This document shows, one piece after another, positions 5,153-18,778 of a stretch of DNA of 64,000 nt; position 1 is the stretch's first letter, and the number at the start of each line of letters is the position of its first letter. The position numbers and the translations under genes were made by a program. Below the pieces are notes generated by a model. That model was not told where the DNA came from. It ran no database searches and saw nothing but the letters and a program-made list of their open reading frames with translations. This stretch comes from an uncultured Nitrospiraceae bacterium (GTDB lineage Bacteria > Nitrospirota > Nitrospiria > Nitrospirales > Nitrospiraceae), in the NCBI GenBank assembly GCA_964555285.1, contig CAZKRM010000001.1:220792-284791 (forward strand), given 5' to 3'.

Positions 5153-6637
5153 ATGTATCGCAAGAACATCTCCCCTATCCTGAGCTACATCGTTGCCGCT
5201 GTCGGCCTGTTCATCCTGTACCACGTGTGGGTGAAGCCTTCCTACTTTCCGCCGACGCCGCCTCCCCCGGTCACGACGATCTCAGCCGAGGAGGGGGCGC
5301 AGCCGACCGCAGAGCAGCAACACGAAGAGGAACTGTACGCGCGGGAGTCGAAACGCCCACGCGTCATCGATCCGAGCCGGGTGCCGGAGTCCCCGTACGT
5401 GGCGAAGCTGGACGGTATCCGCGACGAGTTGGAGAAAGGCAACGCCGCCGAAGCCGAATCGAGGCTGTCCGACCTGCCGTCCTCACTGCTCGCCGAGCCG
5501 CCGGTCAGGCGGTTTGTGGCCGTCCTCTGGAACAACCTGGGCATCCTTCAAGAACAATCGGGCGGCACGGCGGTATCGGTCAAGACCTTCAAGCAAGCGG
5601 TCTCGCTCGATTCGACAAACCCCATCGCGCACTTGAACCTGGCGCACGCCTATTGGGAACTTCGTGATCCGGGGTTGACGGAGGAGTTTCTGCAACACGT
5701 GATTCAGCTCGCGCCGACCGAAGCCTTCCCCCACCTGGCCATGGCCGACTTGTTACAGGAACAGGATCGCCTCGCTGAAGCCGCCCAGCACCTCGATCGA
5801 GCAGCCGACCGCGCCCGGCAAGACCCCGACGTGCGTTCCTATCTCCAGGCTGTGTCGGCCAAGGTCCGGCGTACGGAACAGGCTGAGCAACAACTCACGT
5901 CGCGTGGCAGCGCACATTTCACCGTAAAGTTCGACGGCGGGGAAGATCAGGCGACCTGGACCGGCGTGCTGGACATTCTGGAGGAGGCGTATCGAGACAT
6001 CGGGCAAAAGTTCGGGCATTTCCCCGGCAAGCCGGTCATCGTGGTCCTGCACACCAGGGATCACTTTCAGAACGCAACGGGAAGCCCGATCTGGGCGGAT
6101 GGCCTCTTCGATCCCGTGCTGGGCCGGATTCAGGTGCCGACGCAGGGGGCGTTGACGGACCAGACCTGGCTGACCCGCGTCCTGCGCCATGAGTACGTCC
6201 ATGCCCTGCTGCATGACCAACTCGGCATGGGGGCCGGATCGGTTCCCACCTGGCTCAATGAAGGTCTGGCGATGCAGTTAGCGGGGGATTCCTGGGCGGA
6301 CCTCGACCAGCCGATGCACGGAGATATCGCACTGGTTCCGCTCGCGGTGCTGGAAGGGGAATGGGGCGGCCTCTCAAGCGGAGCCGCAACCGTCGCCTAC
6401 CTCGAAGCGAATTCCGCGACCCACTACCTCATCGACCGGTTCGGCATGCACCGGGTAAAAGAGTTGCTGACCCTGTTGAAATCGAGACACACCATGCCGG
6501 CGGCAATGCAGGCCACGCTCTCCCTGACCTACGAGCAGTTCGAACGACGATGGGTGGACGATCTCAATGCGAGGTTGAAGTCTGGGAAGAGAGTCTCACC
6601 GAAACGGGCGATACCGGATCAATTCGCGGCTGGTTGA
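5153..6637 (+). CDS. membrane-anchored TPR protein with peptidase MA-like (HExxH) domain
   Basis: N-terminal TM helix, TPR-like repeats, then HEYVH ... WLNEGLA, a gluzincin-type motif pair. GGGAG SD before the ATG. Confidence 0.7.
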   Translation: MYRKNISPILSYIVAAVGLFILYHVWVKPSYFPPTPPPPVTTISAEEGAQPTAEQQHEEELYARESKRPRVIDPSRVPESPYVAKLDGIRDELEKGNAAEAESRLSDLPSSLLAEPPVRRFVAVLWNNLGILQEQSGGTAVSVKTFKQAVSLDSTNPIAHLNLAHAYWELRDPGLTEEFLQHVIQLAPTEAFPHLAMADLLQEQDRLAEAAQHLDRAADRARQDPDVRSYLQAVSAKVRRTEQAEQQLTSRGSAHFTVKFDGGEDQATWTGVLDILEEAYRDIGQKFGHFPGKPVIVVLHTRDHFQNATGSPIWADGLFDPVLGRIQVPTQGALTDQTWLTRVLRHEYVHALLHDQLGMGAGSVPTWLNEGLAMQLAGDSWADLDQPMHGDIALVPLAVLEGEWGGLSSGAATVAYLEANSATHYLIDRFGMHRVKELLTLLKSRHTMPAAMQATLSLTYEQFERRWVDDLNARLKSGKRVSPKRAIPDQFAAG

Positions 6638-7501
6638 ATTCTCTTCCTGGCGAGACCACAACGGAATGAAGCCGGCATGTTCATCTTCCTGCTGAACGCT
6701 CTTCCCCACTTCTCGTAGCGGATCGAACGCATCCTGCCACAACAGTTCTTCATCCGTTCCGTTATACGCACGAATCATGAAGTCGAAGGCGTGGCGTAGG
6801 CCCGGCATCGGAGCCACCGTCTCCGTGCGCTCATCGGTAATCCGCTCGATACGCGCGATACCGCGTCCCTCCGCCGCAAACTGATCTTGCCAGATAAGCG
6901 CCCCGGACTGAGGATCGCGCGCGCGTACGAGAAAGAAGTGGTGCACGGATGACGGCTCCGGATTCGAGACCCGCGTGACCGTTGCGCGGGGCCGAGCCAC
7001 CGTCGCCACGGGACTCGCATTCCCCTCTTTCCCTACGGGATTCAGATTCAGCTGCCCTTCCCACAAAAACTTGCCGGTTACGGCATCGTACACACGAATC
7101 CGAAAGTGGGAGAGGCCGTCGGAGCCCACGCCGATGCCACCGGCAAAGATGCGTTCCCGTGCCGATGACGACGTCGGCGTTCCTTCCTCGCGCACATCGA
7201 GATCGTAGGAGTCTTCGGTGAGCACCACTCCGGTGTTCGGATCGTAGGTCTTGATCAGAATGGTCGACGTCCCTGCCGCCTCAAAGCCAAAGCCGGCCGC
7301 CACGACCGGCGGCGTGCCGCTTGCCGTCAGCTTGGCGAACTCGTGCGTGCTCATGAAGCCGGATTGCCCGAGGAGATCGTAGCCGGCTCCAAATGCGACA
7401 CCCGTTGTGAGTAGGGAGCCGAGGCCGACCGCGATTCCCCACCGACACCGGTCCGCTCGTCGGACCCCTCTCAGCGTCAACATCCATTGCCTGAGTCCCA
7501 T
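6596..7501 (-). CDS. hypothetical secreted protein with internal repeats
   Basis: I place the start at internal ATG 7499-7501 (GGAGGAG SD), giving MGLRQWMLTLRGVRRADR...AFGAG, which is signal-like. The motif YD..TG..LW.(G/D)Q recurs three times. The upstream part of the track ORF was discarded. Confidence 0.5.
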   Translation of the reverse strand: MGLRQWMLTLRGVRRADRCRWGIAVGLGSLLTTGVAFGAGYDLLGQSGFMSTHEFAKLTASGTPPVVAAGFGFEAAGTSTILIKTYDPNTGVVLTEDSYDLDVREEGTPTSSSARERIFAGGIGVGSDGLSHFRIRVYDAVTGKFLWEGQLNLNPVGKEGNASPVATVARPRATVTRVSNPEPSSVHHFFLVRARDPQSGALIWQDQFAAEGRGIARIERITDERTETVAPMPGLRHAFDFMIRAYNGTDEELLWQDAFDPLREVGKSVQQEDEHAGFIPLWSRQEENSTSRELIRYRPFR

Positions 7502-7732
7502 ACAGCTCCTCCTGTTGTGTGTCATTCTGCATGGGAGCCGGTTCGGGGTAAATTCCACGGAGGTTCTGCCTCCCCCACCGAAAGGGGGGGGGCGGTTGCG
7601 TGACCGCCCCGAACCAGCGGTAGCGGTTCCTGGCGACCAGGCGATAGACGAGAATGGCGAAGGCGAGAACACATGGTCCGCCAGGCAATCTAGGCAGAAG
7701 AGGAAGAAACGCCTCCAGGCCTCGATCGACGG

Positions 7733-7762
7733 TTGCCCGCTCGGTAAGAATGTCGCTATAGT
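7733..7762 (+). promoter_or_regulatory. candidate sigma70-type promoter (TTGCCC-N18-TATAGT), near-leaderless
   Basis: The -10 TATAGT ends 6 nt before ATG 7769, and no SD lies between them. Confidence 0.35.
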
Positions 7763-7768
7763 CACCTC

Positions 7769-8182
7769 ATGCAGGTTCGCGTGCTCATCGGGATCTTGCT
7801 CGGACTGATTGGACTGGCAGCCGCCACGCAACTCCTCGGCCTTCGTTCCACCACTGCCTCTCCGGCAGCCCACGTCATGTGGCAGGCGTTCCTATTCGGC
7901 ATTCCCGGACTGCTGGGCGGGTTTCTCCTCGCGCAGAAGCGCTGGGCCTTGATGGGAGCGGTGATTTACGGAACCGTGGGGTTGGCGTTGGATATCTCGA
8001 CGCTGGTGCTGGATCTAAGAAGTTCGGATGGGCAGGTGCTGGTGCCGATACTCAACGGACTGAGCGGCCTCTTGAATTTCTTACTGATCGTGTTCGGCGG
8101 GCGAGGGTTTCTGGATTTGTCCCTGGACACGACGCCTCCAGTACACCACCGTCCCAATCCCCCGTCCCCTTCCGCATCTTGA
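7769..8182 (+). CDS. hypothetical small membrane protein
   Basis: 137 aa with several hydrophobic helices (LIGILLGLIGLAAA, FLFGIPGLLGGFLLA, LSGLLNFLLIVFGG). Confidence 0.5.
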   Translation: MQVRVLIGILLGLIGLAAATQLLGLRSTTASPAAHVMWQAFLFGIPGLLGGFLLAQKRWALMGAVIYGTVGLALDISTLVLDLRSSDGQVLVPILNGLSGLLNFLLIVFGGRGFLDLSLDTTPPVHHRPNPPSPSAS

Positions 8183-9152
8183 TCGGTCGCACCCGCTCGA
8201 AGCCGGCCTCGCGAAGCCAGCGCGCCGTGTCGGCCAGCGAATAGGTATTGCCGGTCTCGGTAAAGAGCAACATCGTCACGGCAAACAAGCCGGCTTCCTG
8301 CGGGTAGAGTCCCTCCCGATCATGGAGAAACGCGTCCTGAACGATCATCCGCCCGCCGGGCGTCAGCGCCGGCAGAGCGCGTCGGAAAAGCGCCTGGTTT
8401 TGTTCGGGCGAGTAGATGTGCAAGACATTCGAATACCAGATGATGTCGTACCGGCCGGTGATCGGCTCCTGCATAAAGTCCAGCGGTTGATACGACAGCC
8501 GCCGGCCGGCCTTGTGCGTGGCGGCGATCTTCCGCGCCACCTCCAACGCAGCAGGCCGATCGCACACCGTTGCCTGCAGCTGTGGGTTCTTCGTCAAGAA
8601 CGCCATCGCATAGGTGCCCGGCCCTCCTCCGAGATCCAGAAGCGTCTTGGCGCCTTTCAGATTCACCTGCGCCGACACTTTCGGCGCAACTTCCAGCGAC
8701 CGATGGTGCATGGCCCACGTGAACTGCTCACGATAGCCCGGCTCCTCCGGCTCATCGTGGTCGAGGGGGAGTCCCGTTTTCACGCTGTCGGTCAGACGAG
8801 ACCAATCGGCCCAGTGGTTCCGCAACAGCGCGAGGTACGCGCCGCGATAGGCGGGGCTCTTGGCATTCAACGCGGTGGCGGCCAGCTTGCTGTTCCAATA
8901 GGTATCGCCCGATTTTCGTAACAGGCCGGCCGCCGCGAGATTGCGGCACAGAATCGCGAGGCCTCGCTCGCTGACCTTGAGCGCGGCAGCCAGTTCACCG
9001 ACCTGCCATTTCTTGGAGCCGATTGCCGTAAACAGGTCGAGTTCCAGTGCCGTTATCAGCACCCGCGGCAAGCGATAGGCCATGACGGCATCGCGAAACT
9101 CCTCGAAGGTCGTGATCGTCTTCGTCTTCAATCTTTTATCCTTCACCCACAA
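8052..9152 (-). CDS. O-methyltransferase family 2 (dimerisation domain + SAM-binding domain)
   Basis: LLDLGGGPGTYA (motif I) and ...DIIWYSNVLH..., with an N-terminal wHTH-like dimerisation region. TTG start is uncertain. The C-terminal ~40 aa overlap the convergent gene. Confidence 0.75.
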   Translation of the reverse strand: MWVKDKRLKTKTITTFEEFRDAVMAYRLPRVLITALELDLFTAIGSKKWQVGELAAALKVSERGLAILCRNLAAAGLLRKSGDTYWNSKLAATALNAKSPAYRGAYLALLRNHWADWSRLTDSVKTGLPLDHDEPEEPGYREQFTWAMHHRSLEVAPKVSAQVNLKGAKTLLDLGGGPGTYAMAFLTKNPQLQATVCDRPAALEVARKIAATHKAGRRLSYQPLDFMQEPITGRYDIIWYSNVLHIYSPEQNQALFRRALPALTPGGRMIVQDAFLHDREGLYPQEAGLFAVTMLLFTETGNTYSLADTARWLREAGFERVRPIKMRKGTGDWDGGVLEASCPGTNPETLARRTRSVRNSRGRSVR

Positions 9153-9160
9153 TAGCAGGA

Positions 9161-9313
9161 GGTGTGCCGGGGTTGACCGCTACTGCGCGCGTCCAGCGAG
9201 CACATTCTTCAATCAGGTCGAGCGATGCTCGACACGGGAGGGGGCCCGAACCAACTCCCCTCCCGTACCCACAGTGCGGGCTGCGCGAGCACAGCGGTCA
9301 GCCTCGACGCACC
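9161..9313 (+). repeat. REP-like element, copy B (with ~60-nt insertion in the core)
   Basis: Arms GGTGTGCCGGGGTTGACCGCT / AGCGGTCAGCCTCGACGCACC. Core halves ACTGCGCGCGTCCAGCGAGCAC and GTGCGGGCTGCGCGAGCAC are separated by extra sequence that has its own hairpin (GTCGAGCGATGCTCGAC). Confidence 0.75.
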
Positions 9314-9316
9314 TCC

Positions 9317-9751
9317 TCACGTAATCTTCTCCTGGCACCACCGTACCGCGTCCGCCGCCTCGTCCAGCTTCTGAAAATCCACCGTCTTCTGAAAGGTCGC
9401 GGCAACATATCGATCGGTCATCTCCGTCGTTTCTTCGAACCCGGCTCCAATCAATAGTGTTCTAAACTTGGCGACGGCCGGCTGCAAATAATACTTGGCC
9501 TGCTTCGCAAGTTCGTCCGTTCCCAAATCCTCCGGTGTGCCCTCGGACAGCAAATTCTGGACGTCTTCCATGTCCATGCCGGTTTGGCAGATGAGGCGAC
9601 CGTCCGGTGTCAATTCCAATATCCAGCCATCGCACCCCAACTCCATCGCCAACGCCCCGCCCGGCTCCAATTCGTAGAGCATGGGCAGAGCCGCGCGTAA
9701 CCGGGCTTGAACGTCGTTCCAGGGTGACTCAGGAAAGGGAGAGCCGCTCAT
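9317..9751 (-). CDS. hypothetical protein
   Basis: 144 aa. ATG overlaps the stop of the upstream TPR gene (ATGA). No family recognised. Confidence 0.5.
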   Translation of the reverse strand: MSGSPFPESPWNDVQARLRAALPMLYELEPGGALAMELGCDGWILELTPDGRLICQTGMDMEDVQNLLSEGTPEDLGTDELAKQAKYYLQPAVAKFRTLLIGAGFEETTEMTDRYVAATFQKTVDFQKLDEAADAVRWCQEKIT

Positions 9752-10578
9752 GCATGGTTCTCACGAAGACGGGAGTTCTCTTTAGCCTCAGCGGCGAGCT
9801 GCGTTCGGAGAGTCTCGAGGCGTTGGAGATTCTCGCCGAGTTTCGGCAACCCGTACTTGCGGTCCATAGAGACCACTTGTTCCAGCAGATCGGCCGCTTC
9901 CCGGAGTCGGCCGAGCTCCTCATAGCATTGAGCGAGAAGATAGCGCGCGCCGCCCACCCGCAGTTCATCTTTGGTCCGCTCCGCGATGTCCAGGCTCGTC
10001 TTGCAGCAGGCCATCGCCTCATCGTAGCGCTTCTGCACGAGGAACGTCCGGCCCATCATCCGCCATGCATCGGCCACGCCTCCTTGGTTGCCCAGCCGCC
10101 GCATCAACACGAGCGACTGTTCGTAGTATTGCAGAGCATTCTCAAACTGGCCGGTCTCGCGCGCGACCAGGCCGAGATCGGAGAAGAGCACCGCCTTGCC
10201 CGCTTCATCATGGACCCTGGTCATGATATCGAGCGCTTCGAGGTAATAGGCACGCGCCCGCTCCCACTCGCCCGCATCGGCTCGGAGATTGCCCAAGTTC
10301 CCCAGCGTCGTCCCGATGCCCTTCTCATCGCCCAGGATCTTCTGAAGTTCCAGAACTTCATGATAATGATGTTGGGCGGAATCGCGGCGACCGCTCACCG
10401 CGCAGATATTGCCGAGATTGCCCAGCGTCGCAGCAAGCGAGCGCCGGTCTCCCAACAGCCGGTCGCACTCCAGCGCCTTCGCGTAGCAGGCATAGGCCTC
10501 GGTGTAGAGCCCTCTGGCGAAGTGCTCGTTGCCCTGGCGATTCAACTCTTCCGAGAGACCATTTCGCATCGGCATCAT
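9748..10578 (-). CDS. TPR repeat protein
   Basis: 276 aa of consecutive 40-residue TPR-like units (..LGNLGN...G....A...Y..AL.I...). Confidence 0.75.
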   Translation of the reverse strand: MMPMRNGLSEELNRQGNEHFARGLYTEAYACYAKALECDRLLGDRRSLAATLGNLGNICAVSGRRDSAQHHYHEVLELQKILGDEKGIGTTLGNLGNLRADAGEWERARAYYLEALDIMTRVHDEAGKAVLFSDLGLVARETGQFENALQYYEQSLVLMRRLGNQGGVADAWRMMGRTFLVQKRYDEAMACCKTSLDIAERTKDELRVGGARYLLAQCYEELGRLREAADLLEQVVSMDRKYGLPKLGENLQRLETLRTQLAAEAKENSRLRENHA

Positions 10579-11755: not shown

Positions 11756-13168
11756 TCAGCGGGAGGATTCGAACAGACCCAGTTGCATTTCTTCCGCACG
11801 CGTGAAGGAGATCGGGTAGCGCTCGGTGAAGCAGGCGTTGCAATACTGGTCGGGCGTGCCCGGCGCGGATTTCAACATACCGTCGAGACTGAGATAGGCA
11901 AGACTGTCGGCCGTGATGTACTTGCGGATTTCTTCGGTCGAGTGGCTGGAGGCGATCAGCTCTTTCTTGGTCGGCGTGTCGATGCCGTAGAAGCAGGGGG
12001 AAACGATCGGCGGCGAGCTGATCCGCATGTGGACTTCCTTCGCGCCTGCGTTGCGAATCATCTTCACGATTTTCCGACTCGTCGTCCCGCGCACGAGGGA
12101 ATCGTCCACCACCACCACGCGTTTCCCGTGCAGCACCTCCGGCACCGCGTTCAACTTCACCTTGACGCCGAAGTGCCGGATGGATTGCTCCGGCTCGATG
12201 AAGGTGCGGCCCACGTAGTGATTCCGAATCAGTCCGGCCTCGAATGGAATGCCGGACCCTTCCGCATAGCCCAACGCCGCCGGCACACCGGAATCCGGCA
12301 CGGGAATCACCACATCCGCCGGCACCCACGACTCCTGCGCCAACTGCCGCCCCAGCGCCTTGCGTGTCCCGTACACGGCGCCGGCGCCGAAGATTTTGCT
12401 GTCCGGTCTGGCGAAGTACACGTACTCGAAAATGCACATCGCGGGTTTCGTCTGCGCGAACGGCCGATAGCTCTCGATTCCTTGTTCGTTCAGGACAATC
12501 AGCTCGCCCGGCTCGATCTCACGCACATACTCCGCATCCAGCAAGTCGAATGCACAGGTTTCCGAGGCGACGATCCAACTGTCGCGGACACGTCCCAGGC
12601 ACAGTGGCCGCAGGCCATAGGAATCGCGCGCCGCAATGATGCCATTGTCGGTCATCAGCACGACGGAAAACGCGCCTCGCACCTGGCTCAACGCATCCAC
12701 CACCCGCGCAAGGAGCGAGTCCGTCCGCGAATGGGCGATGAGGTGGATGATCACTTCGCTGTCCGACGTGGATTGGAAGATGGCGCCGTAGGCTTCGAGC
12801 TCGTTGCGGAGCACTTGGGCGTTGATGAGATTGCCGTTGTGCGCAAGCGCGAGGTTCCCGAACGCGAAGTTAACAATCAGTGGTTGAACGTTCTTGAGGT
12901 CGTTTCCGCCGGCCGTCGAGTAGCGATTGTGGCCGATGGCCATGTGGCCGACCAGCCGCTTCAGTGAAGACTTGTTGTAAATATCGGCGACCAGCCCCTG
13001 CCCCTTCTCCACATAGAAGTGCTCACCGTCGCCCGACACGATACCCGACGCCTCCTGCCCGCGATGCTGTAAGGCGTAGAGGCCGAGGTAGGCCATGTTG
13101 GAGGCTTCCTTGTGGCCATAGATCCCGAACACGGCGCACTCGTCGTGGAATTTATCGGGGCTGATCAT
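11756..13168 (-). CDS. purF: amidophosphoribosyltransferase PurF
   Basis: [10 protein letters not shown] gives an N-terminal nucleophile Cys after a short propeptide. PRTase motif [13 protein letters not shown]. Start 13168 gives a 10-aa propeptide. The alternative ATG 13228 would translate the hairpin. Confidence 0.93.
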
Positions 13169-13259
13169 GGGTAAGGGGCGAGGCGTGAGGCGTGAGAAGA
13201 TCGGAGAAAGTTTTTGGTTCTGGCTCATGACACCTTACCCCTGACTCCTAACCCCTTAC
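13169..13259. repeat. heptad-periodic hairpin (GTGAGGC type)
   Basis: Left arm GTAAGGG GCGAGGC GTGAGGC GTGAGAA. Right arm CCTTACC CCTGACT CCTAACC CCTTAC. Outer 8 bp are perfect. The right arm includes the purL stop codon. Confidence 0.75.
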
Positions 13260-15493
13260 TGCTGATCAAGTATCCGTTCGATCGCCTTCGCCCATCGGTC
13301 AAACATGGTCTCAACCGACAGGTCGATCGTGCAGCCGGCTCCCGGCCGGTCAGCGACGACATCCACAACCAGCCGCTCCCCGCCGACGGTGCCGATCACT
13401 TCAGCCGGCACACCGAACTCGCCGGCAATCTTCAACACCCGCTCGCGGTGACCGGAGCTCGCCGACAACACGACCCGCGACTGGCTCTCCCCAAAGAGTA
13501 AGGAGTCTTTTCTGAGCCGGCCGAGGCCCAATTGTACCACAGCACCGATCGGCCGGCTTGGGCCGGACATGCAGCATTCGGCTAAGGTGACCGCAAGTCC
13601 ACCATCTGAACAGTCATGAGCCGACTGGACCAGTCCTTCGCGAATCGTGGCCAGAACGCAGGCCTGCAGCGCTTTCTCTACCTCTAAGCTCAGCAGCGGC
13701 GGCGAGCCCTGTTCCCGCGAATGCGCGACACGCAGGTATTCCGTCCCGCCGATTTCGTCTTTCGTCACGCCCAATACGATGATGTCGTCTCCCGCCTGCT
13801 TGAACCACTGCGTCATCGCCCGGTCCGCCTCGTCGATGAGGCCGACCATGCCCAGCATCGGCGTCGGGTAGATCGAAAGCCCGTTCGTTTCATTGTAGAA
13901 ACTCACGTTGCCGCTCACGATGGGAACGCCGAAGTGCTCGCAGGCGTCCTTCATCCCCTCGATCGCCAGCACGAATTGCCACATGATGTCCGGCCGTTCA
14001 GGATTGCCGAAGTTCAGGCAGTCGGTCAGACCGATGGGCTCCGCGCCGGAGCATGCAAGGTTGCGCGCCGACTCCGCGACCGCGATCTTGGCCCCTTCAT
14101 AGGGCTGGAGCAGGCAATAGCGCCCGTTGCAATCAACCGTCATGGCGAGGGCCTTGTTCGTCCCCTTCACCCGGACCACTGCTGCGTCCGATCCCGGACG
14201 AACCATCGTGTTCGTCCGCACCATGTGATCGTACTGTTCATAGACCCAGCGTTTGCTGGCAATGGTCGGCGATTCCAGCAGTAACAGCAGCGCAGCGTTC
14301 GCATCCTTGACGTCCGGAATCGCATCGTAATTCAGGTTCGTCAGCATGTCCTGATACGCCGGCGGTGAATAGGGCCGCTCGTAGCGAGGCCCGTCGTCGG
14401 CCAGCGCCTTTGCCGGAATCTCGGCCACCACCTTCCCTTGATCCTTCACGCGCAACATCCCGTCGCCGGTCACCCGGCCCACCACCGCCACATCGAGATC
14501 CCACTTCTTGCAGATCCGGATGCAGTCTTCTTCCTTGCTGGCCTTGGCGACCATCAACATCCGTTCTTGCGATTCGGATAGCATCAACTCGTACGGCGTC
14601 ATGCCCGGCTCGCGCCGCGGCACATGGGTCAGGTCCATCTCAACGCCGGTGCCTTCGCGCGAGGCCATCTCGCAGGATGAACTCGTCAGCCCCGCGGCCC
14701 CCATATCCTGAATGCCCACGAGCAGATCGCCTGCCATCAGTTCGAGACAGGCCTCCAATAACAACTTCTCGGTAAAAGGATCGCCGACCTGAACCGTGGG
14801 CCGCTTCTGCTCGGATTGGTCATCGAACGAATCGGACGCCATCGTCGCTCCGTGAATCCCATCGCGGCCCGTCTTGGAGCCGAAGTAGATCACCGGGTTG
14901 CCGACACCGGCGGCCTTGCCCTTGAAAATCCGGTCCTTCTTGGCGATGCCGAGACAGAACACATTCACGAGAGGGTTTTGCGCATAGATGTCGTTGAAGA
15001 CAATTTCGCCGCCCACTGTCGGTACGCCCATGCAGTTGCCATAACCGGCAATGCCGGTCACGACTCCCTTCATCAGGTGACGATTCTTGGCCTGGTCGAG
15101 TCCGCCGAATCGCAGCGAATCGAGCAGCGCAATTGGCCTGGCCCCCATCGTAAAGATGTCGCGCAGGATCCCACCCACGCCGGTCGCCGCTCCTTGATAG
15201 GGCTCGATGAACGAGGGATGGTTGTGCGACTCCATCTTGAACACCACACACAACCCATCGCCGATATCCACCGCGCCGGCATTCTCGCCGGGCCCTTGCA
15301 CAACGCGAGGCCCAGTCGTCGGCAACTTCCGCAAATGCACCCGCGACGACTTGTAGGAACAATGCTCCGACCACATCACAGAAAACATGCCCAACTCGGT
15401 CAGATTCGGCTCCCGTCCCAAGATCTCGACGATCTTCTTATATTCATCGTCCGTCAGATTATGCTGGGCGAGGAGATCTTTGGTGATAATCAT
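13256..15493 (-). CDS. purL: phosphoribosylformylglycinamidine synthase subunit PurL (FGAM synthase II)
   Basis: 745 aa with full-length similarity pattern to PurL ([24 protein letters not shown]). Start set at ATG 15491-15493 ([13 protein letters not shown]). Confidence 0.95.
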
Positions 15494-15807
15494 TCCGTCA
15501 CATCCCATTGACCAGGTTCATAATGCCTCATCAGGTCCCGGCTTGAGTGAATCACCGCTTCGATGAAGCAGGTATCTTGGCGAATTTCGTAAATGATCCG
15601 ATAGGCTCCATGAATCAGTTCTCGAAGGTTGAGCAATTGGTACTCAGGAACTACTCTCCCAAGAGCGGGGTACTCCTTCAGCACTCGCAGCGCCTGGACC
15701 AATCGCTTAGAGAATCGCTCCGCATAGCGCGGAGAATCCATGGCAATGTATCTGACGATAACTTCTAAATCCTTCAGCGCCGGCCCTGTCCAGACGACTT
15801 TAGCCAC
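15490..15807 (-). CDS. RelE/ParE family type II toxin
   Basis: 105 aa. The pattern (M)[27 protein letters not shown]...L......L..P..G is typical of ParE/RelE plasmid-stabilisation toxins. GTG start with AGAGGG SD. Stop TGA overlaps the purL ATG. Confidence 0.8.
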
Positions 15808-15986
15808 TGATCTACCCTCTTTTCCGCTTCCTCTTGAGAAATAATGTCGCCGGCGTCCGCAGCGGCCATTCCGCGCTCAATCTTCTCCCTGACGTAGATG
15901 TGATACTGGATGTCCTCCCACGTGCAGTCCTCCGGCAGAGATTCCAGCATCTTCTTCATTTCCTCTTTGACCGTGGCCTTACTCAT
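15774..15986 (-). CDS. putative antitoxin (addiction-module component) paired with RelE/ParE
   Basis: 70 aa from ATG 15984-15986 (GGAGG SD). The C-terminal motif KIERGMAAADAGDIISQEEAEKRV is common in ParE-associated antitoxins. Confidence 0.6.
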   Translation of the reverse strand: MSKATVKEEMKKMLESLPEDCTWEDIQYHIYVREKIERGMAAADAGDIISQEEAEKRVDQWLKSSGQGRR

Positions 15987-16182
15987 AAGACCTCCCTGTC
16001 GCATATCCCAGTGCCGCCAAAACTTGCTCGTGGGTGATGACATAAGCTTCCTGCACCGCCTCAAATGTCTCCCCCGCAGCCAGCGCCCCCGCCACCGTCG
16101 CCACATCGATACGCGTCCCTGTCAGACAGGGCTTCCCAAACCGAATACCGGGGTCCATTGAGATACCAGGAAAGATTTCCAT
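15979..16182 (-). CDS. DUF433 domain protein (antitoxin-like HTH)
   Basis: MEIFPGISMDPGIRFGKPCLTGTRIDVATV...VLAALGYA matches the DUF433 signature (DP.I..GKP.I.GTRI.V). ATG 16182 has a GGAGG SD. Confidence 0.75.
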   Translation of the reverse strand: MEIFPGISMDPGIRFGKPCLTGTRIDVATVAGALAAGETFEAVQEAYVITHEQVLAALGYATGRSYE

Positions 16183-16209
16183 AGCCAAGGCCTCCTCTCC
16201 CCATACGCT

Positions 16210-16479
16210 CTACGCCAAGAGCGACATCACTTCGGTCGAGACGATGCGCGGAGATTTCCATACTCCATCAGCCGCACGTTGGTAGCCTGCCTCTTTTAGA
16301 ATATCGTCCAGCGTTCCCATCTTTTCCGCCTCTTCGACAAACAGACGGACGGCGGTCTTTAGATTACGCCTGGCCTCATCGCCGTCCTTCCCGCAACTGG
16401 AGACATCCAACTCAGGACAATGCGCCACGTAGGCTTTGCCTTCCTGGAAAATAATGGCATCAAACTCAATTGGAATCAT
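16210..16479 (-). CDS. HicB-like antitoxin (UPF0150 fold), no HicA partner seen
   Basis: MIPIEFDAIIFQEGKAYVAHCPELDVSSCGKDGDEARRNLKTAVRLFVEE is the typical HicB N-terminal domain pattern. The alternative start is ATG 16509. Confidence 0.7.
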   Translation of the reverse strand: MIPIEFDAIIFQEGKAYVAHCPELDVSSCGKDGDEARRNLKTAVRLFVEEAEKMGTLDDILKEAGYQRAADGVWKSPRIVSTEVMSLLA

Positions 16480-16598
16480 CGCAGCTTCCACATCAGACTT
16501 GGCTCGCATTCTGAAATCTCGACGATCTTCTTGTACTCGTCGTCCGTCAGATTATGCTGCGCGATGAGGTCTTTGGTGATGAGCTGCGCTGAAAGCAT
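16476..16598 (-). pseudogene. relic 5' end of purL (40-codon [32 protein letters not shown]...)
   Basis: Codons 6-28 match the N-terminus of the functional purL with mostly synonymous differences. The ORF then leaves purL sequence and stops at a TGA that overlaps the ATG of the HicB-like gene. Confidence 0.7.
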
Positions 16599-16643: not shown

Positions 16644-17552
16644 TCAGTCTTCCTCGAAGTAGTCGGAATCAATCCGCTTGATCGAGTAACTCGCGGTCTC
16701 AGTGACTCCGATCCCATGGTCCATCATCAACTGCGCAAGTTGCTCGCCATCTATCAAGACAATCTTTTTCTCGATCCTGCCTACATAGTCTTTTGCGTCT
16801 TGAGAAAACCTTGAAGTCGTAATCAGGACACCCTTCCGTGCCCGATGTCCCTCCAGGCTGCCTGCAAATTCTTGAACAGTAGGTCTGCCGACCGTAGCCT
16901 CCCATCTCTTTGCCTGGATATACACGACATCTAAGCCGAGCTTGTCTTCTTTAATGATTCCATCGACGCCTTCATCTCCACACCGTCCAACAGCTTGGCC
17001 GGCATCTTTCCTTGATCCGCCATAGCCAATGGCCACCAAGAGATCGACCACCAACCGCTCAAAAAACTTCGGCGAACAGCGCTTGACCCGATCCAGAACA
17101 TCCAATGCCAGCGCTCGCCGCAAGTCCTGATAGGCTACTTCGAGAGTTTCAAATGGAGTATGCTGGGCATCTTCCTCTTCAATCTCTTCTTCCTTTTGGG
17201 AAGAGCGCGTACCCCTCTGGAACTCCACGAACTCGGGAAACTGTTTGAGAAACCTGGTGTTAACCTCTGACGGCTTGCTGCCCAATACCTTGAGGCCCCT
17301 CTCAGCAATTCGAAACCGTCCTCTTCCTGGTCTTTCGAGTAACCCCGCCTTAGTGAGGTAGATTACAGCCCACGAGACTCTATTCTTCAGCTTCGACTGA
17401 GTGCCGCTGGGAAGTAATTCGTTCTTATCCTCTTCTCTCAAACTAAATTGTTCGGCCAACGTATCGTGAACTTCACCGGTACTGTGTTCCGCACCATCGC
17501 TTGCGATCCGTAGAATCGGAAACATGAACTTCTGATAGTCCGGAACCGCCAC
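16644..17552 (-). CDS. mrr: Mrr-family restriction endonuclease (Mrr_N winged helix + Mrr catalytic domain)
   Basis: (M)AVPDYQKFMFPILRI... N-terminus as in Mrr. The catalytic region is GDEGVDGII...VYIQAKRW. Looks AT-richer. GTG start with GGAG SD. Confidence 0.88.
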   Translation of the reverse strand: MAVPDYQKFMFPILRIASDGAEHSTGEVHDTLAEQFSLREEDKNELLPSGTQSKLKNRVSWAVIYLTKAGLLERPGRGRFRIAERGLKVLGSKPSEVNTRFLKQFPEFVEFQRGTRSSQKEEEIEEEDAQHTPFETLEVAYQDLRRALALDVLDRVKRCSPKFFERLVVDLLVAIGYGGSRKDAGQAVGRCGDEGVDGIIKEDKLGLDVVYIQAKRWEATVGRPTVQEFAGSLEGHRARKGVLITTSRFSQDAKDYVGRIEKKIVLIDGEQLAQLMMDHGIGVTETASYSIKRIDSDYFEED

Positions 17553-17705: not shown

Positions 17706-18416
17706 TCAGGCTCCAACCATCTTCTTGTTTTTCAGCCCCTCCACCATCGACGCCAGAATCAACCGCCCATCTTCATTACCCAATACATCCTCCGCGCAGC
17801 GCTCCGGATGCGGCATCATGCCGAGCACGTTGCCTTCGGCATTGCGAATACCGGCGATGTTATCGAGGGAACCGTTCGGATTCGCCTCCGGCGTCACCTT
17901 GCCGTCAGCCGTGCAGTAGCGGAAGATCACCTGCGCGTTGGCCTGTAAGCCCGCTAGTGTGACCGGATCGGTGTAGTAGTTGCCGTCTGCATGGGCAATC
18001 GGAATCTTCAGCACTTGGCCGGATTCGCAGGCTCCCGTGAACGGCGTCGCAGCATTCTCGACCTTCACATACACGTCCTTGCAGATGAAGTGCAGCGACT
18101 GGTTCCGCAACATCGCGCCGGGCAGCAATCCCGCTTCCAAGAGAATCTGAAACCCGTTGCAGATGCCGAGCACCATGCCGCCTTCAGCCGCAAACTGCTT
18201 TACGGCTCCCATCACAGGAGAAAACCGTGCGATGGCGCCGGTGCGCAGATAGTCGCCATAGGAAAACCCGCCTGGCAGGATCACCGCGTCGAGGCCGGCC
18301 AACGACGTTTCCTTGTGCCAGATCATCTGCACGGATTGACCGAGCACATCGCGGAAGACATGCTCGCAATCGTGATCGCAATTGGAACCGGGGAAAACGA
18401 CGACGCCTATTTTCAT
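17706..18416 (-). CDS. purQ: phosphoribosylformylglycinamidine synthase glutaminase subunit PurQ
   Basis: [14 protein letters not shown]..., [19 protein letters not shown] and HPER are class I amidotransferase motifs. Confidence 0.95.
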
Positions 18417-18420
18417 AAAA

Positions 18421-18526
18421 GTTATGAGTTATGAGTGCTGAGTTGGTTCAGAGCCTTGAGTTCCCACTCCCGCTGAAGTTCAGGCAACTCAGAACCCAGA
18501 ACTCACAACTCAGAACTCGAACTCAG
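18421..18526. repeat. heptad-periodic hairpin (CTGAGTT type)
   Basis: Left arm GTTATGA GTTATGA GTGCTGA GTTGGTT CAGAGCC TTGAGTT. Right arm AACTCAG AACCCAG AACTCAC AACTCAG AACTCGA ACTCAG. Fills the purS-purQ spacer. Confidence 0.85.
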
Positions 18527-18532
18527 CGCGCC

Positions 18533-18778
18533 TCACTGGCCGCTGAGCTCGTACCGGTATTCCTCAATGATCGTGTTCGCCAGCAGCTTCTCGCACATGG
18601 CCTTGACCTCAGCCTCGGCCTTGGCCTTATCCTTCTCCGTCACATCCAACTCCATGTACTTCCCCACCCGCACATTGCCGGCATTCTTAAATCCCAGCGA
18701 GCCGAGCGCGTGCTCGATGGCTTTCCCCTGCGGATCAAGAATCCCCTGCTTCAACGTCACATGAATCTTCGCTTTCAC
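18533..18778 (-). CDS. purS: phosphoribosylformylglycinamidine synthase subunit PurS
   Basis: 81 aa. (M)KAKIHVTLKQGILDPQGKAIEHAL is the canonical PurS pattern. GTG start with AAGGGGGG SD. Confidence 0.92.
   Translation of the reverse strand: MKAKIHVTLKQGILDPQGKAIEHALGSLGFKNAGNVRVGKYMELDVTEKDKAKAEAEVKAMCEKLLANTIIEEYRYELSGQ

Follow-up and report, generated by a model that had tools for sequence, protein, structure and literature searches.

The purine biosynthesis gene purL of an uncultured Nitrospiraceae bacterium (assembly GCA_964555285.1, contig CAZKRM010000001.1, positions 220,792-284,791 of the forward strand; this whole stretch of 64,000 nucleotides (nt) is termed the window) stands directly behind a small cassette of toxin-antitoxin genes, on the far side of which lies a second, dead copy of the purL start, termed the relic. 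The original prediction, made from the window alone, had described a single splice into purL; comparison with about 50 related Nitrospira contigs shows that the locus is one instance of a recurrent array system. The architecture is very probably that of serial insertion at the working purL, in which every arriving cassette imports a purL start of its own. As judged from sequence comparison, the likelier mode of insertion is homology-dependent recombination, in which a portable copy of the purL 5' end would act as the homology arm.

Two diverged copies of the purL start

The gene order at the locus, all on the minus strand, is purS, purQ, a gene for an Mrr-type restriction endonuclease, the relic, a hicB-type gene, a DUF433 gene, an antitoxin candidate, a ParE gene, purL and purF. 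The working purL (13256-15493; FGAM synthase II of 745 amino acids (aa), with Pfam domains FGAR-AT_linker, two AIRS and two AIRS_C) begins with the cassette-borne start ATG ATT, read as MI, and a core of 66 nt (together 15422-15493). The relic is an open reading frame (ORF) of 40-42 codons at 16476-16598. It opens with the start codon and N-terminal extension that were native to the earlier purL (ATG CTT TCA GCG CAG CTC, read as MLSAQL; 16581-16598), passes through a 66-nt core which still resembles functional purL and is the putative recombination zone (16515-16580), and ends in the left junction (16480-16514), where the degenerate purL tail TCAGAATGCGAGCCAAGTCTGA is followed by a 13-nt linker, TGTGGAAGCTGCG, into the hicB ATG.

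A 73-nt duplication with 62 identical bases (15421-15493 versus 16514-16586) had been claimed for this locus and was recovered exactly; the ungapped repeat is longer still, with 74 of 88 bases (84%) identical between 15400-15487 and 16493-16580, and the insert measures 1.09 kb, with an 88-nt repeat. The further details of the prediction also proved accurate: the relic has its ATG at 16598-16596 and reads MLSAQLITKD, its TGA (16478-16476) overlaps the ATG of the hicB-type gene (16479-16477), and at the other end the TGA of ParE overlaps the ATG of purL, read as ATGA at 15493-15490.

The local alignment score of the repeat is 106, compared with a mean of 18.7 and a maximum of 29 among 286 pieces of 300 nt drawn at random from the window, with both strands included. 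A profile of Nitrospira purL 5' ends matches the distal copy with E = 2.8e-21. Across the first 22 shared codons, beginning ITKDL(L/I), the two copies show seven differences, of which six are synonymous third-position changes and one is the L/I exchange, while differences in codons 23-29 are mostly non-synonymous. The view that the distal copy had formerly served as a functional purL start is supported. The core of the window relic departs from the functional consensus at 2 of 66 positions, compared with 4-12 in most other relics, and this nearly pristine state indicates that it became a relic more recently than that of the related contig L159. The two copies in the window are, by the pattern of their differences, diverged functional alleles.

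Synonymous-site conservation of the core is barely above that of the rest of purL (0.68 versus 0.63, the sliding-window part of the calculation being unreliable towards the 3' end). Folding of both repeat copies as single-stranded DNA, on both strands, gave z values of -0.2 to -1.3 relative to shuffled sequences and no attC-like structure. An Rfam scan of the repeat gave nothing near the gathering threshold, and its two sub-threshold matches (E <= 1) belong to eukaryote and archaeal families and are chance fits. The promoter and terminator scan of the locus was uninformative: no terminator-like site was found at the cassette-purL junction, and the sole terminator-like match within the cassette (15864-15848, in the antitoxin gene) is no more than shuffled sequences would lead one to expect.

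Arrays, fixed junctions and hybrid relics in related Nitrospira

The purL loci most similar to that of the window are all from Nitrospira or Nitrospiraceae metagenome-assembled genomes. When the related loci (given here by handles such as L001) were searched for relics with a nucleotide profile of the purL 5' end, the purQ-purL gap of about 50 contigs was found to hold one to four cassettes separated by relics, which are dead copies of the first 30-100 nt of purL (in L001, L011, L081, L087, L094, L097, L159 and L160). Overall, the gap is empty in some contigs and carries 1 to about 9 varied small genes in others, with no mobility genes. The cassettes are of several kinds, namely hicBA, ParE-type pairs, MntA-type pairs, DUF433, UV glycosylase and Mrr; cargo other than toxin-antitoxin genes comprises the Mrr gene, the pyrimidine-dimer glycosylase and unknown proteins. 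The largest number of purL 5' copies per contig is four, reached in L113, where they lie within 2.3 kb and the array reads relic, MntA, 121-aa gene, relic, AT2-RelE2-small ORF, relic, hicB-hicA and purL. The array of L001 consists of the glycosylase, a relic with an in-frame TAG, an MntA-type gene with a 121-aa partner, a short relic, DUF433-antitoxin-ParE and purL. L087 carries purQ, a 291-aa gene, a relic, DUF5674 with a 121-aa gene, a short relic, DUF433-antitoxin-ParE and purL, and L097 carries purQ, Mrr, a relic, MntA, a relic, DUF433-antitoxin-ParE and purL. In L159, Mrr is followed by a decayed MLSAQ(P) relic, MntA-HepT, a relic, hicB, DUF433, a PIN/DUF5615 toxin gene and purL, and L081 shows a relic, antitoxin-ParE, a decayed relic and a purL with its own start.

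The empty site that relatives had been predicted to show is also present. In L002, L004 and L006, purQ is followed by purL with no toxin-antitoxin cassette or relic in between (L002 has the glycosylase only), and L007 reads purQ-Mrr-purL; the repeat is single-copy in L002, L004, L006 and L007. The gap of L008 and L010 contains other small genes, and a weak "relic" in L008 was rejected, as it represents ordinary similarity between antitoxin genes. The site changes state among close relatives, as L001, L002 and L011 have PurL about 97% identical and three different site states. Two Logan contigs, L162 and L163 (SRR4343439 and SRR4343427), match the window at 100% identity from Mrr through relic and cassette to purL, and no within-population polymorphism was seen in the two Logan contigs carrying the Mrr gene of the window.

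A metagenome scan with the hicB-type protein of the window gave 58 loci, and the set analysed comprised the 38 at >=78% identity together with the window (39 in all). A working purL start lies downstream on the same contig in 33 of the 39, five of the other six contigs ending earlier, and in 29 of these loci the end of a relic lies no more than 60 nt before hicB. Relatives of hicB at <=62% identity are not at purL, and neither is a ParE relative at 70% identity (L092). Among 79 purL loci, mostly from other phyla, an upstream duplicate of the gene's own 5' end was found only in L001 (94, with a median of 25 and a next-best value of 37).

The junctions of the cassettes follow three rules. The left junction, at which the relic breaks off, is fixed for a given cassette type: before hicB, the cut falls at profile positions 84-94 in 28 of 29 relics (and at exactly 91 in 16), before MntA at positions 92-100 in most contigs (78 in L159, 110 in L130), before AT2 at positions 54-59 and before DUF5674 at position 53. 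One degenerate tail and linker, GAGAT-TTCAGAATGCGAGCCAA(A/G)TCTGATGTGGAGGCTACG-ATG, recurs in most relic-to-hicB units, whatever stands upstream, and this tail is identical behind at least 10 different heads; likewise, the relic-to-MntA junction is identical behind two different native heads, those of L001 and L097. The same constancy is seen at the right junction, where each cassette type endows the following purL copy with a start codon and N-terminal extension of its own. The head after hicA is MQSNAQV-ITKD with an 11-nt spacer in most contigs (with variants such as MKTDAHI in L120, L123 and L125), after the solo antitoxin AT' it is MALESVP-MTKD, after the small ORF of the RelE2 cassette MKSSEQI-ITKN, after the glycosylase MVIVTAPV-ITKD and after ParE MI-ITKD with the ATGA overlap. 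The form MI-(I/M/F)TKD follows ParE in all ParE-coupled contigs, and in L081 it persists behind ParE as a decayed relic. Each relic in turn bears the head typical of the cassette upstream of it (for example, in L113). The fixed left and right junctions, taken together with the relic heads, show that each cassette entered at the purL start that was then working and that the newest cassette is the one adjoining purL.

The same logic can be followed in individual lineages. The working purL of relatives starts a few codons upstream of ITKD, with N-terminal extensions that vary between lineages. The long relic of L001 is the real purL start of its sister L002 (MVIVTAPVITKD), now with a stop codon, and the working start of L001 is of the ParE type common to the window, L087, L094 and L097. 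L159 is the closest relative of the window by Mrr identity (95%), and its MLSAQ(P) head directly after Mrr identifies MLSAQL as the native start of the window's lineage. The resident purL of the window would thus have begun with MLSAQL directly after Mrr until a composite of orphan hicB, DUF433 and antitoxin-ParE came in, since when purL would have started with MI, overlapping the ParE stop. A recombination mechanism that regenerates the 5' end of its target had been one of two readings offered for the window, and it gains support here; the working purL start came with the ParE cassette. For annotation, this means that the start codon and first residues of PurL in these genomes depend on the last-arrived cassette, and that the upstream ORFs of 30-50 aa are dead gene starts and not genes.

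The cassette of the window is itself built of parts. The gene next to purL (15490-15807) encodes a ParE/RelE-family toxin (PF05016 ParE_toxin, E = 3.7e-19, 88 of 89 profile positions). The ORF upstream of it (15774-15986), which overlaps the ParE start by 34 nt, encodes a 70-aa antitoxin candidate that has no Pfam or NCBIfam match of its own; a 59% identical relative shows a weak RelB/ParD match, and the candidate is 94-99% identical in L001, L081, L087, L094 and L097, always directly upstream of ParE. With a toxin of the ParE/RelE fold and a small, overlapping and co-conserved upstream antitoxin gene, the pair has the make-up of ParDE/RelBE-type systems and is a predicted type II toxin-antitoxin system of that type. 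The DUF433 gene (15979-16188; Pfam, 4e-18) lacks the DUF5615/PIN_10 partner present in L156-L159. The "HicB-like" label given earlier to the remaining gene (16210-16479) holds mainly because relatives 82-91% identical to it adjoin a HicA toxin gene (PF07927, 2e-10), its own match to HicB_lk_antitox being sub-threshold (E = 0.17). The canonical unit is hicB-hicA, and hicA follows hicB in most relatives; it is deleted in the window, where the HicA-next-to-HicB arrangement of a hicAB system is reduced to the hicB-type gene, an orphan antitoxin. As both the DUF433 and the hicB-type gene are orphaned, the cassette comprises two lone antitoxin-type genes and one complete antitoxin-ParE pair.

The junction at which hicB is fused to DUF433 (16189-16209) is identical in the window, L116, L119 and L129, where it stands behind different relic heads; thus, a deletion first fused two cassettes and the fusion then moved as one unit. 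The four-gene cassette originally described accordingly does travel as a unit at present, although its sequence marks it as a composite, in which an orphan hicB was apparently fused by deletion to DUF433-antitoxin-ParE. Fuller versions are seen in L127 (hicB-AT'-relic/AT2 fusion-DUF433) and in L159, where hicB adjoins DUF433 and the PIN/DUF5615 partner is kept after it. In several contigs, DUF433-antitoxin-ParE follows a relic that runs in frame into the C-terminus of an antitoxin of the AT2 type, the fusion point being a 9-nt identity, TCTGACGGA, common to purL and the antitoxin AT2. The fusion ORFs (L094 5394-5556, L097 5225-5370) join the purL codons (I/M)(T/N)... to the C-terminal half of AT2 (LTEEEE.GIL..L..LD.G.G), and the short relic B of L001 and L087 is an L097-type fusion with an internal deletion of about 130 nt.

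Mode of insertion and alternative explanations

In the proposed mechanism, a cassette would consist of a short degenerate purL tail, its genes, and its own start codon, N-terminal extension and first ~22 purL codons. The purL copy of the cassette would recombine with the resident working purL; the crossover is placed inside the 66-nt core because the relic tail downstream of the core is non-functional sequence. The resident start and core would thereby be fused to the cassette tail, giving a dead relic, and the start and core of the cassette would be placed before the rest of the resident purL, which stays intact. Repeated insertion would produce arrays with the newest cassette beside purL, and the reverse reaction between any two copies would remove cassettes. 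The recombination would be general and RecA-type, acting on linear or circular donor DNA, rather than the work of a dedicated site-specific recombinase. Two topologically equivalent routes can be envisaged: Campbell-type integration of a circle that recombination between two copies had set free, or two crossovers with a linear donor, in which the donor relic would pair with the recipient purL start and the donor purL further downstream.

The main competitor to general recombination is site-specific integration, by which the cassettes would be miniature or decayed integrative elements that attach within the first ~30-66 nt of purL and are mobilised in trans, by a tyrosine or serine recombinase encoded elsewhere. 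On this view, the incomplete purL copies would represent attL/attR remnants, comparable to the partial tRNA copies between tandem tycheposons or genomic islands, and polar accretion at one site with partial target copies and a regenerated target end is the very outcome of serial integration (bioRxiv 10.1101/2020.12.28.424599). Moreover, nt ~11-31 of the core are common to all relics, and some relics keep only about 30-50 nt. This explanation is nevertheless considered unlikely on several grounds, the first of which is that the inferred crossover points differ between instances. The core is of functional type to at least nt 58 in the relics of the window, L106 and L098/99, which places the crossover at or beyond nt 58. 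A GAG peculiar to relics is found near nt 52 in roughly a dozen further hicB relics, and their crossover is placed below nt 50; L106 falls among the GAG-bearing cassettes in hierarchical clustering of hicB distances. In L114, a reciprocal switch lies between nt 15 and nt 42. Taken together, these point to at least two or three crossover intervals.

The search for an enzyme or a carrier argues in the same direction. The reported lack of an integrase or transposase gene in the window was borne out, with no integrase, transposase or recombinase gene within about 12 kb on either side, and the hotspots of about 50 loci contain no recombinase gene, these being contig fragments, with the rest of the genomes not searched. 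Large unannotated ORFs in the hotspots of related contigs gave only SEC-C, AAA_16 or no matches. The cassettes measure 0.5-1.2 kb, and the spacing of the hicBA cassette, with 13 nt before hicB and 11 nt after hicA, leaves no room for a recombinase gene. A 20-mer of the purL core has no match in 2.9 million viral contigs, no relatives of hicB were found in viral contigs, and the 1.2-kb cassette has no match in plasmid or phage collections. Furthermore, site-specific integration would need one additional attachment site for the similar relics of the purQ 3' end and another for those of the glycosylase 5' end. The purQ relics are mirror images of those of purL: they are 3'-end fragments that lie beyond a complete purQ, from which a small ParE-type pair separates them, and they suggest the same process at the other border of the hotspot.

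Such purQ fragments (about aa 195-236) were observed in L098/L099 (2383-2481, 3131-3238) and L119 (1326-1406), as well as in L156/L158 (5643-5765) and L160/L161 (5011-5118). Two further features were noted in L160 (6407-6535, 7135-7585) and L156 (6918-7082): the glycosylase gene acts like a cassette, with purL relics that break off at positions 50 and 54 on its two sides, and decayed glycosylase 5' fragments occur directly after Mrr.

Homology-dependent insertion by general recombination is hence favoured on account of the varied crossovers, the lack of a recombinase, the tight spacing, the absence of a fold and of a carrier, and the purQ and glycosylase fragments. Several points weigh against it. 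Informative sites in the core are few, and gene conversion or parallel mutation could mimic the crossover intervals; a recombinase may also be encoded elsewhere in the genomes. A comparison of the window with L001 gives no sharp step in identity of the kind that would mark a recent transfer. Some relic homology arms are 30-50 nt long, near the lower limit for efficient RecA recombination; deletions between short homologies do occur, as at TCTGACGGA, and later deletions such as that in relic B can explain short arms. Finally, the proposed mechanism gives no account of how a non-replicating cassette reaches another cell, and it leaves unexplained how each cassette type first gained its purL 5' piece and its own extension.

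An insert flanked by direct repeats would be lost through the reverse reaction unless its loss kills the cell, and such addiction probably explains the dominance of toxin-antitoxin genes in the arrays. The same persistence argument has been made for restriction-modification (RM) systems between long target duplications (PMC2853133).

Wiring of purL to the toxin operon has been considered as an adaptation in its own right, either as an addiction module made undeletable or as control of purL by the toxin-antitoxin genes via translational coupling, with the duplication being incidental. All cassettes are co-oriented with the pur operon, no terminator-like site separates the cassette from purL, and the ATGA overlap of ParE and purL is kept in five of the six contigs that have this ParE (>=86% identical; fragmented in L097) at purL, with L001, L087, L094 and L097 among the five and L081 being the exception. 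Of the two overlaps described for the ends of the cassette, only this one is conserved. At the relic-hicB end, many relics have stop codons or frameshifts, and in most relatives a GGAGG (GGAAG in the window) precedes the hicB ATG by about 6 nt; translational coupling there is not supported. As the explanation of the locus, adaptive wiring is quite improbable. The proposed non-deletable module is weakened by the flanking direct repeats, which provide a precise exit route, and by fast turnover, as seen in the three site states at about 97% PurL identity; other cassette types reach purL via 11-nt spacers and not via overlaps, the relic ORFs are often broken, and in L081 the ParE-linked purL start is dead and a start 168 nt downstream is used. 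A selective benefit of this kind could, however, come on top of serial insertion, with which it is compatible.

In L081, which belongs to a more distant Nitrospira lineage, the decayed ParE-linked start and the purL start in use lie within 2378-2546. Both relics flanking antitoxin-ParE in this contig are of foreign type, which indicates that relics can ride along with a cassette.

Duplication of the target in place, by a staggered break with fill-in or by one illegitimate insertion, followed by vertical inheritance and decay with no ongoing mobility, would find a parallel in RM systems known between long direct target repeats without a mobility gene (PMC2853133) and in the similar divergence of the window and L001 in the cassette (80-95%) and in purL (80-85%), but it is most improbable, because its copies would begin identical and decay randomly, whereas the two copies in the window are diverged functional alleles with different heads (six of the seven core differences being synonymous), working copies across lineages share a cassette-specific head while relics carry the native head of the lineage, genomes with about 97% identical PurL differ in site state, and the same cassette junctions are combined with many heads, these hybrid relics largely refuting it.

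Relation to known systems and neighbouring features

Insertion with long target duplication, which Nobusato et al. reportedly described for RM systems in 2000, is the closest known system. As set out by Furuta et al. 2010 (PMC2853133), it involves an insert of <20 kb, direct repeats of >30 bp and a single copy of the repeat in the insert-less genome, and its proposed life cycle also uses the repeats for entry and release. The present locus agrees in its 1.09-kb insert, its 88-nt repeat, the single copy in L002, L004, L006 and L007, the lack of linked mobility genes, and the small selfish or defence gene set between the repeats. It differs in having no R and M genes between the repeats, the Mrr gene (Type IV) standing outside them; in a cargo of toxin-antitoxin genes with some defence and repair genes instead of RM systems; in a repeat that is the coding 5' end of an essential gene and that the arriving DNA apparently brings along as a diverged allele, start codon included; and in serial, polar events that give arrays of up to three relics and a working copy.

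Orphan toxin-immunity arrays downstream of rhs/cdiA build up in a related manner, with a core-gene piece of the incoming module serving as the homology arm, the gene end being exchanged by homologous recombination, and the displaced old end staying behind as an orphan together with part of the core. The gene end exchanged in those arrays is the 3' one, and what varies is the protein's own functional toxin domain. In the purL arrays it is the 5' end of a housekeeping gene that changes, and the variable genes, which have nothing to do with PurL function, form cistrons of their own. SXT, inserted at the 5' end of prfC, likewise supplies its target with new 5' coding sequence. Tandem integrative elements at tRNA genes (tycheposons, genomic islands; bioRxiv 10.1101/2020.12.28.424599) resemble the purL arrays in that older units are pushed away, partial target copies lie between them and the target end is regenerated. 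Tycheposon- and SXT-like elements, however, have their own recombinase and a fixed core, unlike the units of 0.5-1.2 kb with varying crossovers and no recombinase seen here.

The region between purQ and purL, with strain-specific cassettes and no mobility genes, also has the features of core-gene-flanked hotspots and of the minimal mobile elements of Neisseria (PMC5635113; PMC3787668; PMC1797815), where exchange is attributed to homologous recombination in the flanks. Ordinary flank replacement leaves no duplication, whereas at purL the homology arm would travel with the cassette and be left as a relic, and cassettes add to each other and do not replace one another. Integrons are similar in having co-oriented compact cassettes with little or no promoter space, many of them toxin-antitoxin cassettes, added at one end beside a fixed site. 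They differ in that neither the 12 kb on either side in the window nor the ~50 hotspots yielded an intI (the rest of the genomes not being searched), no attC hairpins are formed (z -0.2 to -1.3), and the repeat is the start of a protein-coding gene.

What is new here is insertion with long target duplication that has toxin-antitoxin cargo, is recurrent, polar and recombinase-less, and rewrites the start of an essential gene; no description linking Nitrospira, toxin-antitoxin genes and purL, or of a purL-anchored array, was found in the literature searched. It is tentatively suggested, at somewhat below even chances, that the arrays represent a recombinase-free form of gene capture, in which a portable copy of an essential gene's 5' end would serve both as homology arm and as replacement start. 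Capture would be serial, directional and reversible, with the N-terminus rewritten each time, amounting to an integron-like array run on host recombination and stabilised by toxin-antitoxin genes, and a mirror process may act at the purQ 3' end. Such a system would show that tiny selfish gene pairs without mobility genes can spread, and pile up at one address, by means of a carried piece of an essential gene. Gene capture by so simple and general a route could account for some toxin-antitoxin and defence "islets" that bear no mobile-element signature. Furthermore, since the relics keep the order of past insertions, the dynamics of the hotspot become readable from metagenomes.

The borders of the variable region are conserved. 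Upstream, purS (18533-18778) and purQ (17706-18416; Pfam GATase_5, 2.5e-43) are syntenic in the relatives, and purQ forms the conserved upstream border; downstream, purF follows purL. The Mrr-type restriction endonuclease gene (16644-17552; Mrr_N and Mrr_cat, Pfam 3.2e-36 and 1.5e-30) lies between purQ and the relic, outside the purL repeat, and is in the same position in L007, L097, L101, L108, L116, L126, L156 and L159; it is an older occupant of the purQ-purL gap. In L094-L096, the purL that follows the same ParE cassette (6249-9911) encodes 1220 aa and contains an intein (Intein_splicing and LAGLIDADG_3). Two imperfect inverted repeats were also observed in the window, one in the purS-purQ spacer (18420-18445 / 18485-18510, with 26-nt arms, 85% complementary) and one at the purL-purF junction (13162-13196 / 13234-13268, with 35-nt arms, 74%).

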